From NCBI GenBank assembly GCA_018304545.1, contig JAGVVZ010000004.1, positions 9,944 to 73,943 of the forward strand: a stretch of 64,000 bases of DNA, read 5' to 3'. The notes below the pieces were generated by a model, which saw only the letters and a list, made by a program, of their open reading frames with translations, had not been told where the DNA came from and did no database searches. This DNA comes from Candidatus Aenigmatarchaeota archaeon. Lineage in GTDB: Archaea > Aenigmatarchaeota > Aenigmatarchaeia > CG10238-14. Shown in pieces: positions 5,720 through 11,741 of this stretch (position 1 is the first letter of the stretch; each line of letters begins with the position of its first letter). The position numbers and the translations under genes were made by a program.

Positions 5720-6658
5720 CTATAGTTTTTTGCAAAAATATTCTACAGTCTTATAATAGTTATTGATTGCCAAAATAAGCAGTTTTCTTATAGTTTTTCT
5801 GTCCTTTCCAGATCTTAAATTCATCATATCCTCTATTACTGGTTTGCCGTTTTTTCTAATTACATCAGGAATTTTCATGTTAACCATATTTTTTAATTCG
5901 AGATATCTTTTATTCTGAAACATTTTGAAAGTTACCCATGTCATATTCAATCCTATATATGCTAAAAACGCATCATCCAACACATGTTTTTTGTCCTTTT
6001 TTAGATCATTTAAAATTCCGTTTTCTGTATAGAATATTTTATTAGCATTTTCCAAGACAACTTTATAATTTTCATAAAGCTGATTGTCAAATCCAAAGGC
6101 CATGACACGGGAGTTAGCCAGTATGTCTTTTATAAGTAGCGTCATTGTCGATCCTACTCTTGTAAATGATACCAATAATCTTTCAATCGTAAACGGTTTT
6201 TTCGGTTTATGCCTGTCTAACAAATAAAAAATTCTGTCTGCAGCATTCTCCATCTCTTCATTCAGTATATCTTCTATTCCGTCTTGTTTATTCAACAAGT
6301 GCATCAGCTCATGGGCAAAAAGACCGGATATAGCTTGAATATTATTTGTCCGAAATATTTCCTCATTCGCATTTAACATTATAATGGGCGATTTTCCTTT
6401 CTCCCAGTATGAAAAGTTAGGCTTGTTGCCGCATACCCATTCTCTCATCTCACCGTGTCTCTTTACTTTCAGCCTTTTTCCAGAGTTTAGAATTATTTTA
6501 CAAACAGCAATAGGATTTGTTGTTACATAAACATCTAACTTCTTTAAACTCTTCACATGCGCTCTCTCCTCAAATTCTCTTATGACATTAGAAATAGCAA
6601 TCGATACGATGCCCTTTTGCTTACCCTTAATATCAATGTGTTTTATCACCTGGAGCAT
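5720..6658 (-). CDS. hypothetical protein with zincin HExxH motif
   Basis: GLFAHELMH in a 312-aa ORF. Confidence 0.65.
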   Translation of the reverse strand: MLQVIKHIDIKGKQKGIVSIAISNVIREFEERAHVKSLKKLDVYVTTNPIAVCKIILNSGKRLKVKRHGEMREWVCGNKPNFSYWEKGKSPIIMLNANEEIFRTNNIQAISGLFAHELMHLLNKQDGIEDILNEEMENAADRIFYLLDRHKPKKPFTIERLLVSFTRVGSTMTLLIKDILANSRVMAFGFDNQLYENYKVVLENANKIFYTENGILNDLKKDKKHVLDDAFLAYIGLNMTWVTFKMFQNKRYLELKNMVNMKIPDVIRKNGKPVIEDMMNLRSGKDRKTIRKLLILAINNYYKTVEYFCKKL

Positions 6659-7375: not shown

Positions 7376-8083
7376 GTGAACCTGTTTGGAAAGAAAGAGA
7401 AGAAACGGATAGTAGGAATTGTGGGAGGGTTGGGACCAGAGACAACATCCCAATTTTATTTAAAACTCATAGAACTAGCTAGAAAATATGATGACTCATA
7501 CCCCTCTTTGATCATAGATAACGTGGCTTTTCCATTCCGTTTAGAAAGAGAAATAATAATACACTCGAAAAACGAAGAGGAGATATTACCCTTCATAAAA
7601 GATTGCATTATTCGGCTAAACAAGGCAGGCGCAGATTATATAGTGATACCTTGCAATACTGTTCATGTTTTCATAGAAGATTTCAGAAAACTCTCGTCTG
7701 TTCCTGTTATTAGCATAGTCGAAGAATCTGTGAAGGATATAATTTCCCATGATTTTAAAAACGTAGGAATATTGGGCACGACAAAAACAATAGAGAGTGA
7801 AATTTATCAAAAGGAATTAAAAAGAAATGGAATAAAATTCACAATACCACCAACTAAGAGACAAAGAACGCTCTCTTCATTGATAGTAGATATACTTGAG
7901 GGTAAGAAAGATCCAGATTCAATAGATCTGATATGTAGTGAATTAATTTTACAGGGTTCTGATTGTCTCCTTCTTGCATGTACCGAGTTACAACTTGTAA
8001 CATCCGAAATAGACTTTAATGTCAGTGTTTTGGATACAACAAATATTTTGATCAAAAAAACCTTTGAAATTTTGAAAGGATGA
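7376..8083 (+). CDS. Asp/Glu-racemase-family amino acid racemase
   Basis: VGIVGGLGP; both catalytic Cys present (PCNT, ACTEL). Confidence 0.92.
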   Translation: MNLFGKKEKKRIVGIVGGLGPETTSQFYLKLIELARKYDDSYPSLIIDNVAFPFRLEREIIIHSKNEEEILPFIKDCIIRLNKAGADYIVIPCNTVHVFIEDFRKLSSVPVISIVEESVKDIISHDFKNVGILGTTKTIESEIYQKELKRNGIKFTIPPTKRQRTLSSLIVDILEGKKDPDSIDLICSELILQGSDCLLLACTELQLVTSEIDFNVSVLDTTNILIKKTFEILKG

Positions 8084-8087
8084 TTGT

Positions 8088-9065
8088 ATGTCGAATTTTT
8101 TATATGGCTCAATACCATTAATGGCAGAAAAAATTAGCAGGTTACCATTAAGACCAGCAGAAGAATTACCCGATTTGTATAATGAAAGTTTAATTATTAG
8201 AAGAGGGCACTTAATAGGTTACATACCATTCCATCCAGATGCAACAATCCTTACCTGCATGTGTTTTGAAAGTGGTGGTATTGGGTTATCTGTTTACCCA
8301 TCTTTAGAAATAGCAGATTCGTTGAAAAATATTCATCCTGTTAGATTTCTCATACCTACATATGAATACAGAACCTACAGACTACTGCCAGATAAAGATA
8401 TAAAAAGAAATGAAAGGGAAGCAAGAAAGTTACTTAATAACAGAGAATTTGAAGTAATAGATGTTTCAGAAGAACCTTATATGTCTAGAAGATTGAAAAT
8501 GTTTTCGAGAATATTGCCTTACATGAAATATGGAAATTCTCTAAATGCTTATCCTCTTGGAGATGGGTACCTTCAACTTGCATTAGGAGCTTTAGAAATA
8601 TCAGATATCCTTCTATGCGTAGAAGATCATGGAAATACTGTTGTGGTGTCTGATGAAGGATGCGCTGGTCCTGTAATAACAGCTAAAAGAATTGCAAAAT
8701 ATTTTGGATACAAAAGTGAAAATTTAGGAGTATTAGCATACTGCGAAGCTGTGAGTTTGGATGAAGAAAGTACAATGTATGCTGCTAGTGAAACAAATAA
8801 ACTTCATTTAATGAGTGATGATCCTGATAAAATAAAATATTCAATTACAACTGGCGGTAGAACAAAAGAAGAACATGCGTCACAAGGCGGTAAGCCATAT
8901 CAATGTCCAGTACAAGTAGTGCATTCTATGATTGCATATAATGATGCGATACTCGCTACTTGTGCTGAAGAATGTATGAAAGGCACTCTTGGATGTACAG
9001 ATCATAAATCACTAGTTATGGAAGAGTATGGACTCTTTATGCGAGGAACGGAGAGAAGGCCATGA
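8088..9065 (+). CDS. degenerate tryptophanyl-tRNA synthetase paralog
   Basis: Colinear similarity to adjacent TrpRS (IIRRGHLIG/FLRRGIFFA; DDPDKIKYSITTGGRTKEEHASQGGKP/DDPKQ..KYAYSGGQATIEEHRKKGGNP); HIGH, AIDQ and KMSSS motifs are lost. Confidence 0.8.
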   Translation: MSNFLYGSIPLMAEKISRLPLRPAEELPDLYNESLIIRRGHLIGYIPFHPDATILTCMCFESGGIGLSVYPSLEIADSLKNIHPVRFLIPTYEYRTYRLLPDKDIKRNEREARKLLNNREFEVIDVSEEPYMSRRLKMFSRILPYMKYGNSLNAYPLGDGYLQLALGALEISDILLCVEDHGNTVVVSDEGCAGPVITAKRIAKYFGYKSENLGVLAYCEAVSLDEESTMYAASETNKLHLMSDDPDKIKYSITTGGRTKEEHASQGGKPYQCPVQVVHSMIAYNDAILATCAEECMKGTLGCTDHKSLVMEEYGLFMRGTERRP

Positions 9066-9928
9066 AAAAAATAGAAGAATTTAGTTATGCATTCGAAGAA
9101 AAAGAACCTGTAATTACTATAAACCCAGGTGAAATAATAAAGCTCAAAATAGAAGACTGTTTTTCGGGAATGATTAAAAAGAAATCTGATTGGCCAAACG
9201 AGAAAATAATGGAATACGCTAATCCCTGTACGGGTCCTATTTATGTAAATGGGGCAGAGCCGGGAATGAGCTTATCCGTGGATGTATTAGATATAAAAGT
9301 AGGCCATAAAGGGACGAATATAGCAAAAGATTGGGGGATGCTCAATGGTCGTGTATATGGAATAAAGATAATGAAGATTGAAAAAAAGAAGCTCGTACTC
9401 AACGACAAAATAAAAATACAACTAGATCCCATGATAGGATGTATAGGCACCGCACCGAAAAATCCTGTTTCAACACTAAAAGCGGGTTATTTTGGAGGTA
9501 ACATGGACATAAATCTTGTTAGAAAAGGAAGCACCGTTCATTTACCCGTATTTGTTTCAGGTGGATTGCTATATATTGGAGATTTGCACGCATTGATGGG
9601 TGAGAGTGAACCCACGCTTTGTGCTATAGAAACTTATGGCGAGGTTTTAGTTAAAATAAATCTGACCTCACAAAAGATTTTACGACCAAGAATAGAAACG
9701 GGAGAGGAATTTGTAACGGTTGCTATAGAAAAGAATATGGAAACTGCCACTAAGATTGCTGTAAATGATATGTTCGATTTTTTAGTATATGAAGTTGGCA
9801 TTGATAAAATGGACGCTCATGTCTTGATAAGCGCGGCCTGTAATGTGAGATTGGGTGTACATGATGAAGTCGTGGCAATTGCTTTAATTAAGAGGGATAT
9901 CATAAAAAATTATATAAGGAGTGATTAA
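9062..9928 (+). CDS. acetamidase/formamidase family protein
   Basis: NPCTGPIYVNGAEPG, GGNMD, GDLHALMGESE. Confidence 0.92.
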   Translation: MKKIEEFSYAFEEKEPVITINPGEIIKLKIEDCFSGMIKKKSDWPNEKIMEYANPCTGPIYVNGAEPGMSLSVDVLDIKVGHKGTNIAKDWGMLNGRVYGIKIMKIEKKKLVLNDKIKIQLDPMIGCIGTAPKNPVSTLKAGYFGGNMDINLVRKGSTVHLPVFVSGGLLYIGDLHALMGESEPTLCAIETYGEVLVKINLTSQKILRPRIETGEEFVTVAIEKNMETATKIAVNDMFDFLVYEVGIDKMDAHVLISAACNVRLGVHDEVVAIALIKRDIIKNYIRSD

Positions 9929-10597
9929 ATGCAGCTATCAATTAACCAAAATCTAAAGTCCTCCTATCCCGATTTAAAGGTTTCAGTTTTTGAAGCCAAA
10001 ACAAAAAGCAAGTTGGAATTAAATCAGGATCTAATTACAAAGAAGAGAGAATTAGAAAAGATGATAAGAGAGAGCTATAAAGATACAGAAAGATTGGATA
10101 GAATAATAAAATATAACGCATTCTACAAAAAATTTGATTCCAAAGTACCCATGGAGTTTCAAATAAAATCTGTTATAGAAAACAAGGAAATCCCTCTTGT
10201 AAATTCTGTTGTCACTTGTATGTTTATGGCCGAATTGAAAAATATAATTTTAACGGCCGGCCATGATACGGGTAGACTTGGAGAAAAAATAAGAGTTTCT
10301 TGTTCAGATGGCACAGATGAGTATGTAAAAATAAATGGTAAACAGCAAAAACTAAAAAAAGGTGACATATTCGCTTCTGATAACAATGGAATAATATCTA
10401 GCGTATTTTATGGCCCAGACTTAAGAACAAAAATTACAGACGGAACAAAAAATTTTATGTTTATGTGTTACTGCCCATTTAGTATATCAGATAACGAAAT
10501 CAGAGGCCATATGCAAGATATCGTCGATTACTTGAAAATTTTGGGAGAGAACAAATTAGAGTTTGGCGATATTGAAGTTTTTAACGTAAAAAAATAA
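9929..10597 (+). CDS. stand-alone B3/4 domain protein (PheRS-beta editing-domain-like)
   Basis: YNAFYKKF, IPLVNSVV, AGHD, DNNGIISS, GPDLRTKIT. Confidence 0.85.
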   Translation: MQLSINQNLKSSYPDLKVSVFEAKTKSKLELNQDLITKKRELEKMIRESYKDTERLDRIIKYNAFYKKFDSKVPMEFQIKSVIENKEIPLVNSVVTCMFMAELKNIILTAGHDTGRLGEKIRVSCSDGTDEYVKINGKQQKLKKGDIFASDNNGIISSVFYGPDLRTKITDGTKNFMFMCYCPFSISDNEIRGHMQDIVDYLKILGENKLEFGDIEVFNVKK

Positions 10598-10613
10598 TAG
10601 TATAGATGATTAT

Positions 10614-11741
10614 ATGAGAGATAAATTTATTGTCACACCATGGGAAGTCAGAGGAAATATAGACTACAGTAAATTAATAAAACAATTTGGTGTCCAACAC
10701 CTTGACAATAAGCTATTAGAAAGAATGAAGAAACACACTGGAGAGGTGCATTATTTTTTAAGAAGGGGGATTTTCTTCGCTCATATGTACTTTGATGTAA
10801 TTTTAAATGATTTAGAAAAAGGTAAGAAATTTTATTTGTATACTGGAAGAGCACCGTCAGGTCCTGTTCATATAGGTCATTTGATCCCGTGGATATTTAC
10901 AAAATGGCTTCAGGATAAATTTAAAGCAACATTATTGTTTGAAATTCCAGACGAGGAAAAGTTTCTGTTCAAAGATAATTTTTCGATGGATGATGCTAAA
11001 AAATGGGCATATGAAAATATATTGGACATAATTGCTCTAGGTTTTGACCCGAAAAGAACGAAGATATTCCTGAATACCGAGTACGCTAAGACTCTCTATA
11101 AAAACGCATGTTTTGTAGCGAAAAAAATTACTGTTTCGACTGCTAAATCAACATTCGGCTTTACAGACTCTAATAATATTGGAGAGTATTTTTACACATC
11201 CATGCAATCCGTCCCTGCATTTTTGCCAACAATTCTAGAGAAAAGGGAGACACACTGCTTAATTCCATGCGCGATAGATCAAGACGTTCACTTCAGATTA
11301 ACGAGAGACGTTGCCATATCTTTAGGTTATCCAAAACCCGCAACGTTGCTTTGCAGATTTCTGCCAGGTCTACAAGGCATAGAACATGAAGGCAAGATGT
11401 CGTCATCTGAATCACATACTGCAATTTTTACTACTGATGACCCCAAACAAGTGCATGATAAAGTAATGAAGTATGCTTATTCTGGTGGCCAGGCAACTAT
11501 AGAGGAACACAGGAAGAAAGGAGGAAACCCTGATGTAGATGTATCTTATCAATGGCTCACATTCTTCGAAGAGAATGACAAAAAACTAAAGAAAATACAT
11601 GATGATTATAAATCCGGAAAACTGTTAACAGGAGAATTAAAACAGATACTGATAGATAAACTAAACAAATTCTTAAAAGAACATCAGGCAAGGAGAGAAA
11701 AGGCAAGGAATGAAATTGAGAAATTCATGCTTAGAGATTGA
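10614..11741 (+). CDS. trpS: tryptophanyl-tRNA synthetase
   Basis: VTPWEV, YTGRAPS, HIGH, AIDQ, KMSSS. Confidence 0.98.
   Translation: MRDKFIVTPWEVRGNIDYSKLIKQFGVQHLDNKLLERMKKHTGEVHYFLRRGIFFAHMYFDVILNDLEKGKKFYLYTGRAPSGPVHIGHLIPWIFTKWLQDKFKATLLFEIPDEEKFLFKDNFSMDDAKKWAYENILDIIALGFDPKRTKIFLNTEYAKTLYKNACFVAKKITVSTAKSTFGFTDSNNIGEYFYTSMQSVPAFLPTILEKRETHCLIPCAIDQDVHFRLTRDVAISLGYPKPATLLCRFLPGLQGIEHEGKMSSSESHTAIFTTDDPKQVHDKVMKYAYSGGQATIEEHRKKGGNPDVDVSYQWLTFFEENDKKLKKIHDDYKSGKLLTGELKQILIDKLNKFLKEHQARREKARNEIEKFMLRD

Follow-up and report, generated by a model that had tools for sequence, protein, structure and literature searches.

A tryptophanyl-tRNA synthetase paralogue without HIGH and KMSKS signatures, retaining Fe-S-type ligand spacing, is encoded shortly upstream of TrpRS in small-genome archaea

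The window analysed here is a 64,000-nt stretch of archaeal DNA, in which a 325-aa protein derived from tryptophanyl-tRNA synthetase (TrpRS; class Ic, EC 6.1.1.2) is encoded upstream of the genuine enzyme. The paralogue and its four neighbours are arranged as follows:

7376..8083, + strand: gene of the Asp/Glu/hydantoin racemase family (PF01177, E 2.4e-37)
8088..9065, + strand: TrpRS-derived paralogue, full length (N-terminal region, Rossmann/CP1 domain, anticodon-binding domain), 325 aa (hhalign, AF2, Foldseek, dN/dS)
9062..9928, + strand: small acetamidase/formamidase-family protein, FmdA_AmdA (PF03069, E 2.3e-26; PDB 3tkk, E 1.2e-44)
9929..10597, + strand: stand-alone B3/4-domain protein, with the fold of the PheRS beta editing domain (PF03483, E 3.5e-7)
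10614..11741, + strand: genuine archaeal TrpRS with HIGH/AIDQ/KMSSS and no Cys motif (NF008927, 535 bits against a cutoff of 478; PDB 3jxe, E 1e-117)

The racemase-family gene ends 4 nt before the paralogue, a placement seen in genus g1 only, and the start of the FmdA_AmdA gene overlaps the paralogue stop codon (ATGA). Database gene calls put the start of the paralogue at M12 (8121); position 8088 is the likelier start, because the 11 residues ahead of M12 are conserved at the protein level in relative G002, as MS(N/S)FLYGS(I/V)PL. The FmdA_AmdA gene was found in 3 of 41 relatives, which are exactly those with the paralogue. Here the B3/4 domain makes up a protein by itself; relative G020 has it as a fusion to TrpRS, and elsewhere it occurs as an insertion within a MetRS. 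The TrpRS at 10614-11741 is the only canonical one of the genome, in which a PF00579 search finds just this protein and TyrRS and misses the paralogue. A PADLOC search matched neither the paralogue nor its four neighbours to a defence system. That the paralogue has a private substrate, in the form of a suppressor tRNA or an additional tRNA(Trp), was considered and rejected: aragorn reported a single tRNA-Trp(CCA), with an intron, and none of the anticodons UCA, CUA and UUA, in a search that is weak owing to a noisy intron mode and a genome 92% complete.

At all eight loci examined a genuine TrpRS gene follows the paralogue on the same strand, one or two genes downstream. The adjacent TrpRS are of two types, with a mutual identity of only 34%. 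At 7 of the 8 loci an amide or peptide hydrolase, of different families, stands between paralogue and TrpRS: the intervening gene is FmdA-like at four loci and encodes a DUF3335 C39-like peptidase at three, and the remaining locus has an unknown 127-aa protein together with NIF3. A fixed two-enzyme pathway is not established, since the intervening genes vary by lineage and one locus is without a recognisable hydrolase.

In a pairwise BLASTP comparison, similarity between the paralogue and the neighbouring TrpRS was limited to the C-terminal 100 residues (25% identity, E 2e-7). The best NCBIfam score (NF008927, 38.9 bits against the cutoff of 478) also covers only the C-terminal 100 residues, no Pfam model matched at E<=0.1, that of the cyclodipeptide synthases (CDPS) included, and phmmer against PDB sequences returned 3jxe as its sole match (E 0.17). 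Profile-profile comparison with hhalign aligned the paralogue with TrpRS colinearly and nearly end to end (98.2%, E 5e-14, 258 columns), and a second comparison matched residues 23-314 to residues 46-361 of archaeal TrpRS (98.0%, E 1.7e-13, 283 columns). These alignments bear out the colinear, full-length similarity to TrpRS that the original prediction, made from the sequence alone, had claimed. An ESM Atlas search with the paralogue retrieved TrpRS-like clusters (PF00579 on 29 of 30 matches) and one unnamed cluster, but no more specific match. The origin of the paralogue as a full-length, TrpRS-derived protein is supported.

The fold, which had been named as a point on which this claim could fail, came out as that of TrpRS. 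The AF2 model (pLDDT 91.3, pTM 0.90) shows a Rossmann domain with CP1 and a helical anticodon-binding domain, a result that is partly built in, as the input alignment included 22 genuine TrpRS; a single-sequence AF2 run was unusable (pLDDT 32). The best Foldseek matches of the model were all TrpRS, at TMq 0.75-0.82 (E 6e-15 for TMq 0.82).

Alignments place the following motifs within the paralogue:

8262..8270, + strand: Cys-x-Glu (C59-F-E61), at the end of the strand before the HIGH helix, invariant in all full-length family members
8277..8294, + strand: GIGLSV at the site of the HIGH signature, without a His
8352..8369, + strand: IPTYEY in place of TrpRS (Q/E)I(T/P)D(D/E)EK
8595..8606, + strand: E170-I-S-D173 in the specificity helix
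8649..8663, + strand: SDEGC in place of AIDQD
8769..8789, + strand: STMYAAS in place of the KMSKS loop (TrpRS GKMSSS)
8850..8897, + strand: TGGRTKEEH and GGKP of the anticodon domain, retained
8904..9008, + strand: metal-ligand motif C273-x22-C296-x6-C303-x2-H306, followed by K307 (PMC2954223; PMC1538984)

The replacement of HIGH, AIDQ and KMSSS, noted in the original prediction, holds for all three. The HIGH segment of TrpRS (VHIGHL) aligns with GIGLSV/LSVY, and His is absent from the HIGH positions in every member of the family alignment. Residue roles are those described for P. horikoshii TrpRS (PMC2831299; P numbering). PCAIDQD aligns with VVSDEGC, in which the ribose-binding Asp216P is retained as D189; most other family members have IADQGS at this site. 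Of the KMSKS loop (KMSSS or KMSAS in archaea) only the Met is kept (M230), within a family pattern x-M-Y/F-x-A/G. The alpha-amino-binding Glu116P is retained as E93, and the alpha-amino binder Gln198P aligns with E170, a position that is Glu or Gln in the family (Gln in 3 of 9 full-length members); D173, three residues further on, is nearly invariant. Lys431H (K307) and the S/T-G-G anticodon loop are retained as well. The residues that are gone are the phosphate and indole binders, namely Tyr77P (Thr56 in the paralogue, Gly in the other subfamily), Gln111P (an indole binder, now Leu88), Arg80P, HIGH, and the KMSKS Lys and Ser; Lys117P is replaced by Tyr. C59-F-E61 aligns with Arg80P/Gly81P-Pro82P. 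Family invariants around the old active site are C59, E61, Y70, E93, D173, D189, Y218, E220, Y231 and K238, all of them family-specific except E93 and D189, and because so many of these residues are polar and invariant the pocket appears re-tooled rather than dead.

The [4Fe-4S] motif of Thermotoga TrpRS is described as C-x22-C-x6-C-x2-C (T. maritima TM0492; PMC2954223), as the original prediction had stated, with C-x(21-24)-C-x6-C-x2-C as the motif definition for the anticodon-binding domain, and P. horikoshii TrpRS (3jxe) has the same four Cys. The paralogue reads CPV...C-AEE-C-MKGTLG-C-TD-H-K across this region, so the Fe-S-type spacing with His as last ligand was read correctly, as were the absence of Cys from all four motif positions of the neighbouring TrpRS and the retention of GG.T.EEH...GG.P in the anticodon domain. 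C273, C296 and C303 are invariant in the family and spaced as in Fe-S-type TrpRS; nine of ten rows have His as fourth ligand and the tenth has Cys. An additional Cys (C292), four residues before the second ligand, is specific to genus g1. The TrpRS loci retrieved with a profile of the family C-terminus carry the four-Cys motif in 25 of 25 cases, and SufB/D genes are present in the genome. Judged from the alignments, the Cys3-His site is probably the homologue of the [4Fe-4S] site in Fe-S-type TrpRS. It may hold a cluster and could equally bind zinc. K307 is invariant in the family and aligns with human Lys431, which binds anticodon base C35 (PMC1538984). The anticodon-wrapping loop is 1-2 residues shorter than in TrpRS, and the equivalent of His387H is retained in genus g1 only, being Phe in other family members; these differences may alter the specificity for tRNA or weaken its binding.

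The family is rare. Only 5 relatives at E<1e-10 were found among 1.84 billion (1.84e9) representatives, full-length copies are present in 5 of 371 genomes of the phylum, and the narrower family alignment, used to search for related loci, yielded two metagenome loci. In the tree the family appears as one old clade outside the sampled TrpRS (SH-aLRT 100), on a stem of 2.9+2.4 changes per site from 22 TrpRS. Identity between subfamilies is 25-36%, and 18 columns are invariant and 17 nearly invariant. We found no description of the family in print.

We favour, at a probability of about 0.4, the reading that the paralogue is a non-adenylating tRNA(Trp)-binding enzyme acting on the aminoacyl end. 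It would no longer form an aminoacyl-adenylate, as it has lost HIGH, the KMSKS Lys and Ser, and the Arg that binds the alpha-phosphate; the pocket keeps its residues for the alpha-amino group and for the adenosine ribose and base. tRNA(Trp) would be bound, most likely as Trp-tRNA(Trp) supplied by the TrpRS of the same operon, and the re-tooled active site would act on its aminoacyl-A76 end; the candidate for a catalytic pair is the invariant Cys59-x-Glu61. The reaction may be aminoacyl transfer or deacylation, similar to that of cyclodipeptide synthases but tRNA-specific, and the intervening amide/peptide hydrolase may handle the product or the reverse step. A bolder version of this proposal, which we regard as doubtful, is that the paralogue is the first full-length aminoacyl-tRNA synthetase to have become a tRNA-specific consumer of aminoacyl-tRNA. 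Its Fe-S anticodon domain would select Trp-tRNA(Trp) coming from the TrpRS nearby, the Cys-x-Glu would accept the tryptophanyl group in thioester linkage and either pass it to an unnamed acceptor or release it by regulated hydrolysis, a dedicated amidase/peptidase would reverse or trim the product, and the Cys3-His cluster would provide a response to redox state or iron.

Alternatively, the paralogue may be a non-catalytic subunit or tRNA(Trp) handler, forming a dimer with TrpRS through the class Ic interface or simply holding tRNA(Trp), and lending an Fe-S redox-sensitive anticodon reader to a TrpRS without one; we consider this possible, if on the unlikely side. The linkage at eight of eight loci would fit, as would the invariant anticodon Lys, a CP1 dimerisation region kept in outline, and the binding of tRNA across the TrpRS dimer (described in PMC2954223). 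All eight adjacent TrpRS are also without the Cys motif that the paralogue carries. We rejected this complementarity as evidence, however, as it is not significant: most TrpRS of relatives are Cys-less even where no paralogue is present (motif in only 3 of 31). A pure scaffold would moreover not need the invariant polar residues around the former active site in so divergent a family, the CP1 region is ~9 residues shorter, and the C-terminal tail, which in archaeal TrpRS reaches into the dimer interface (PMC2831299), is absent in all paralogues, which end ~15 residues earlier. Complex modelling of TrpRS and paralogue with separate alignments scored 0.00 in both runs, which were made without controls, and speaks neither for nor against binding.

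The original prediction had also raised the option of a neofunctionalised ligase. Taken as a neofunctionalised enzyme, it is the better supported of the options raised there, given the invariant polar residues of the pocket; loss of the equivalents of HIGH, the KMSKS Lys and Arg80P speaks against an ATP-dependent ligase. Such a ligase would use a non-canonical nucleotide site and activate Trp or a related amine-bearing acid for a non-tRNA acceptor, as do MshC or amino acid:carrier-protein ligases, and ligases of this synthetase-like kind are known (PMC9437257). In its favour are the conserved alpha-amino Glu, the Met of KMSKS and the ribose Asp (D189, which most members have within IADQGS), but all the phosphate binders and stabilisers, i.e. 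both HIGH His, the KMSKS Lys and Ser, and Arg80P, have been lost together, and the conserved anticodon domain with its key Lys would be needless in a non-tRNA ligase. We therefore hold it to be improbable.

There is likewise little to recommend a sensor for a ligand or for redox state, or a carrier for Trp, that works independently of tRNA. Such a protein would bind free Trp, or a Trp derivative that the amidase or peptidase encoded nearby releases, and would supply or control TrpRS. Amino-acid scavenging is necessary in small-genome archaea, and this idea would draw on the hydrolases and racemase encoded nearby, on the retained alpha-amino binders, and on the Asp (D173) gained by the pocket at a TyrRS-like or bacterial-TrpRS-like specificity position. 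It leaves the invariant metal motif and anticodon Lys unexplained, and the two residues that bind indole in archaeal TrpRS, Tyr77P and Gln111P, are missing.

The remaining reading, a decaying TrpRS duplicate, has next to no probability and is refuted as far as sequence allows: both class I signatures are gone, Pfam matches are lacking and dN/dS (0.21-0.27) exceeds that of neighbouring genes (0.04-0.18), but the copies of all five genomes are free of internal stops and frame breaks, the overlap between the paralogue stop and the following start codon is maintained, the divergence is old and confined to one clade, and 18 columns are invariant and 17 nearly so between subfamilies. The dN/dS values, which had been proposed as a check on neutral decay, instead indicate purifying selection. 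The locus is best explained by a paralogue that is functional, is kept by selection and belongs to a rare TrpRS-derived family of small-genome (DPANN-like) archaea that had not been described before.

Non-aminoacylating synthetase paralogues have repeatedly uncovered new chemistry, as in CDPS, MshC, GluQRS and HisZ. The present family retains the entire architecture of a synthetase, down to the enigmatic Fe-S-type site in its anticodon domain, and has discarded the ATP chemistry. It stays linked to genuine TrpRS in genomes of <1 Mb, in which little is retained unused. The family offers a natural experiment on the role of the TrpRS Fe-S cluster, as the cluster domain here outlives charging catalysis, and on what may be a novel reaction that depends on tRNA, or a step of quality control, in DPANN-like archaea. 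The B3/4-domain genes suggest that there is a wider uncharted set of synthetase accessories in this group.

Compared to Fe-S-type archaeal and eukaryotic TrpRS, the paralogue has a colinear N-terminal region (RRGH.IGY against LRRG.FF.H), Rossmann/CP1 and anticodon-binding domains, the same predicted fold, the ligand spacing C-x22-C-x6-C-x2-X, and the anticodon Lys, alpha-amino Glu, ribose Asp and KMSKS Met. It differs from them in the loss of HIGH, the KMSKS Lys and Ser, Arg80P, Tyr77P and Gln111P, in the His as last ligand, in the absence of the C-terminal dimer tail, in the anticodon loop shortened by 1-2 residues, and in scores far under the family cutoffs. Known second TrpRS copies, such as TrpRS II and the indolmycin-resistant TrpRS, are active synthetases with intact motifs. 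As a duplicated synthetase with a new role, often found beside its functional partner, the paralogue resembles HisZ, YadB/GluQRS, AsnA, MshC and the amino acid:carrier-protein ligases, which are treated in a 2022 review whose Table 1 gives no paralogue function for TrpRS (PMC9437257). In the catalytic domain there is a parallel with cyclodipeptide synthases, which are described as class-Ic-like users of aminoacyl-tRNA without HIGH and KMSKS, with a catalytic Ser in the corresponding loop (PMC3105412). The paralogue shares with AlbC and Rv2275 the class-Ic catalytic scaffold minus both signatures and a retained aminoacyl pocket. A nucleophile-capable residue lies in the loop before the HIGH helix in both, Ser37 in AlbC and Cys59 in the paralogue; this putative equivalence was drawn through two sequence alignments, which differ by one residue in where they place C59 (at Arg80P or at Gly81P). 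An S37C variant of AlbC is reported to behave as wild type does, and in cyclodipeptide synthases a Glu stands in place of the TyrRS Gln (PMC3105412); Glu likewise occupies the TyrRS/TrpRS alpha-amino Gln position in the paralogue, with Gln in three members of its family. [quoted passage not shown]

The TrpRS-derived paralogue (325 aa) is the second of five genes in a head-to-tail array on the + strand at 7376-11741:

7376-8083, +, Asp/Glu racemase family gene
8088-9065, +, paralogue
9062-9928, +, small acetamidase/formamidase-family (FmdA-like) protein, whose ATG overlaps the paralogue stop (ATGA)
9929-10597, +, B3/4-domain protein
10614-11741, +, canonical archaeal TrpRS

The host genome is archaeal (0.96 Mb, 11 contigs, 92% complete, GC ∼34%), and archaeal ribosomal protein genes lie close by in the window. 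PF00579 detects just two proteins in the genome, the TrpRS of the window and TyrRS. The sole tRNA-Trp(CCA) found by aragorn, which detected the tRNA set incompletely (19-25 tRNAs depending on mode), has a 38-nt intron and lies outside the window (contig C10, 163573-163685). A separate ORF of 312 aa (5720-6658, −) contains the HExxH-like motif HELMH, has no Pfam match at E≤0.1, and may encode an uncharacterised metallopeptidase.

The original prediction described full-length colinear similarity to the neighbouring TrpRS. BLASTP between the two proteins matches the final 100 residues alone (25% identity, E 2e-7), Pfam gives no match to the paralogue, and the NCBIfam TrpRS models cover residues 222-321 alone, at 38.9 bits against a cutoff of 478. 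The similarity was upheld by profile-profile comparison of the paralogue family alignment with 31-34 TrpRS from related genomes (98.2%, E 5e-14, 258 columns; in a second run 98.0%, E 1.7e-13, 283 columns, paralogue 23-314 against TrpRS 46-361). A joint MAFFT alignment also lined up the archaeal N-terminal motif (RRGH.IGY vs LRRG.FF.H). The predicted replacement of the signature motifs was borne out, with GIGLSV/LSVY opposite HIGH, SDEGC (IADQGS in the other subfamily) opposite AIDQD, and STMYAAS opposite GKMSSS, as was retention of the anticodon-domain signature (TGG...EEH...GGKP). AlphaFold2, given 10 family members and 22 TrpRS, predicted a TrpRS fold (pLDDT 91.3, pTM 0.90), for which the best Foldseek matches were yeast, human, and archaeal TrpRS (E down to 6e-15, TMq 0.75-0.82); because TrpRS were in the input alignment, the model indicates fold compatibility rather than independent proof. 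The paralogue is a TrpRS by fold and ancestry alone, and by no other defining criterion.

Downstream of the anticodon-domain signature lies C273-x22-C296-x6-C303-x2-H306-K307 (8904-9008), the Cys3-His motif as originally claimed; in the neighbouring TrpRS the four ligand positions read D, Y, T, and L, without such Cys, as stated. The parallel drawn with Thermotoga agrees with the literature: T. maritima TrpRS binds a [4Fe-4S] cluster in its anticodon-binding domain through C-x22-C-x6-C-x2-C (PMC2954223). The paralogue may carry a metal cluster, and since SufB/D are encoded in the genome, Fe-S assembly is available. By profile match, Fe-S-type TrpRS are common in the phylum (at least 52 of 371 genomes). 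All 25 TrpRS inspected (L045-L068, L007), pulled from these genomes by the paralogue C-terminal profile, have the full C-x(20-24)-C-x6-C-x2-C; in a sample from the window's own order, only 3 of 31 TrpRS do.

The 10-row family alignment has 18 invariant and 17 nearly invariant columns, with 25-36% identity between subfamilies. We numbered the window TrpRS against P. horikoshii TrpRS (3jxe; suffix P, with H for human) and took residue roles from PMC2831299 and PMC1538984. The indole binders Tyr77P and Gln111P become T56 and L88, the alpha-phosphate binder Arg80P becomes C59 by hhalign (MAFFT puts C59 under Gly81P), Lys117P becomes Y94, and both HIGH His as well as the KMSKS-loop Lys and Ser are absent. 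Retained are Glu116P of the alpha-amino salt bridge (E93), Asp216P of AIDQ at the ribose 2'-OH (D189), the KMSKS Met whose main chain contacts adenine N6 (M230), and the S/T-G-G turn; the alpha-amino residue Gln198P is E170, and E or Q across the family. The anticodon-C35 binder Lys431H (K307) is invariant in both families. Family-specific invariants in or beside the former active site are C59-x-E61, Y70, D173 (three residues past E170), Y218, E220, Y231, and K238. By alignment, the parts that would hold an adenosine-esterified alpha-amino acid persist, and the Cys/Glu pair is new. In the genuine TrpRS, codon 110 (∼10941-10943) is Glu (FEIPDEEK) here and in the congeneric G001, and Gln in the congeneric G002 and most relatives; this is the indole-N-binding Gln111P/Gln194H of the P. 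horikoshii and human enzymes.

In all eight loci with visible neighbours, from about five lineages, the paralogue lies on the same strand as a genuine TrpRS, one or two genes upstream; the neighbourhoods of the database relatives P0004 and P0007 are not included.

Gene order at the eight loci
Host genome, G001 (contig C29), G002: racemase, paralogue, FmdA-like, B3/4, TrpRS
G001 (contig C76): paralogue, FmdA-like, TrpRS of another type, 34% identical
Related genomes G204 and G213, metagenome locus L072: paralogue, DUF3335 C39-like cysteine peptidase, TrpRS; stops and starts overlap
Locus L073: paralogue, 127-aa unknown, NIF3, TrpRS

Among 41 relatives, the FmdA-like gene is confined to the 3 that have the paralogue, and its nearest solved relatives are structural-genomics entries named 'predicted acetamidase/formamidase'. 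According to a papain-like peptidase survey (PMC10318531), frequent fusion partners of DUF3335 are GNAT domains that may be peptide ligases. The C76 pair (L039, 221-2611), on a short contig, is a second G001 paralogue and FmdA-like pair, 70% identical; it adjoins a TrpRS 34% identical to the window's, and TrpRS of each type are spread through the order. The contig may stem from a contaminating relative; if not, a single organism carries two such operons and both types of TrpRS. The B3/4 gene of the window stands alone, but its homologue in the related genome G020 (35% identical) shares one 604-aa frame with TrpRS (L023, contig C79, 805-2616; Pfam B3_4 and tRNA-synt_1b), and the MetRS at L072 (9637-12333) has B3_4 between its anticodon and tRNA_bind domains. 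In these archaea, B3/4 modules seem to recur as add-ons to synthetases, perhaps with a part in editing or in handling tRNA.

The residue pattern, the synteny, and a likeness to cyclodipeptide synthases (CDPS) favour an enzyme that would bind tRNA(Trp) and, without forming an adenylate, act on the aminoacyl end of Trp-tRNA(Trp), a tentative reading to which we give a probability of roughly 40%. The co-encoded TrpRS would supply Trp-tRNA(Trp); since the anticodon-binding domain is kept, the substrate would be chosen via the tRNA, presumably tRNA(Trp). The chemistry and acceptor are conjectural; processing of the product would fall to the amide or peptide hydrolase encoded alongside. Possible at lower probability is a protein without catalysis that partners TrpRS or handles tRNA. 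Two features speak against a tight dimer of the TrpRS kind: every paralogue is missing the C-terminal tail (∼15 residues) by which archaeal TrpRS extend their dimer interface, and CP1 is shortened. An enzyme that is still an ATP-dependent ligase is unlikely, every part that handles the ATP phosphates being gone. A tRNA-independent sensor of Trp or redox state is likewise improbable.

A word-indexed search of 5.8e9 proteins returned the paralogue itself and two orthologues (88% and 71% identity), and an exhaustive HMMER scan of 1.84e9 representatives gave five relatives at E<1e-10 (P0002, P0004-P0007); a sixth match (E 1.7e-5) was a spurious repeat protein. Full-length paralogues occur in 5 of the 371 phylum genomes (the host, G001 with two copies, G002, G204, and G213), the remaining 52 matching genomes doing so solely via the C-terminal domain of genuine TrpRS, and a single metagenome scan added two loci. 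For the three orthologues of one genus, NG86 dN/dS was 0.21-0.27 (FmdA-like 0.11-0.18, B3/4 0.07-0.12, racemase 0.12-0.14, TrpRS 0.04), which indicates purifying selection, looser than on the neighbours, and makes the neutrally decaying pseudogene envisaged at the outset very improbable. In a quick ML tree, which left out the fragmentary C76 copy, nine paralogues formed a single clade (SH-aLRT 100), split into a genus-g1 and an 'ADQGS' subfamily and separated from 22 TrpRS by a stem of 2.9+2.4 changes per site; the family is old and of single origin, not a recent copy of the adjacent TrpRS. At L069 (6998-8010, −; G204) and L072 (6001-6990, +), the N-terminal 90-110 codons of the paralogue frame contain no ATG, GTG, or TTG, yet are conserved and align with other members, and the database gene call P0006 is correspondingly shorter; a non-canonical start codon or unusual gene structure could be involved.

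The family is genuine, under selection, very rare, and linked to TrpRS; its function is a proposal. We found no description of such a TrpRS-derived family in full-text literature (supplements outside scope), and Table 1 of a 2022 review of aaRS duplications (PMC9437257) includes no TrpRS paralogue function. The protein belongs to a known kind, the aaRS-derived paralogues. CDPS are class-Ic-like enzymes without HIGH and KMSKS, in which a Ser of the loop ahead of the HIGH helix accepts the aminoacyl group from aa-tRNA; an S37C variant (S37 being the catalytic Ser of AlbC) is active, and Glu occupies the position of the TyrRS alpha-amino Gln (PMC3105412). The residue losses and retentions of the paralogue and its gene context resemble this pattern. 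Unlike CDPS, however, the family keeps an entire anticodon-binding domain and a metal site, and neither sequence nor architecture makes the paralogue a CDPS.
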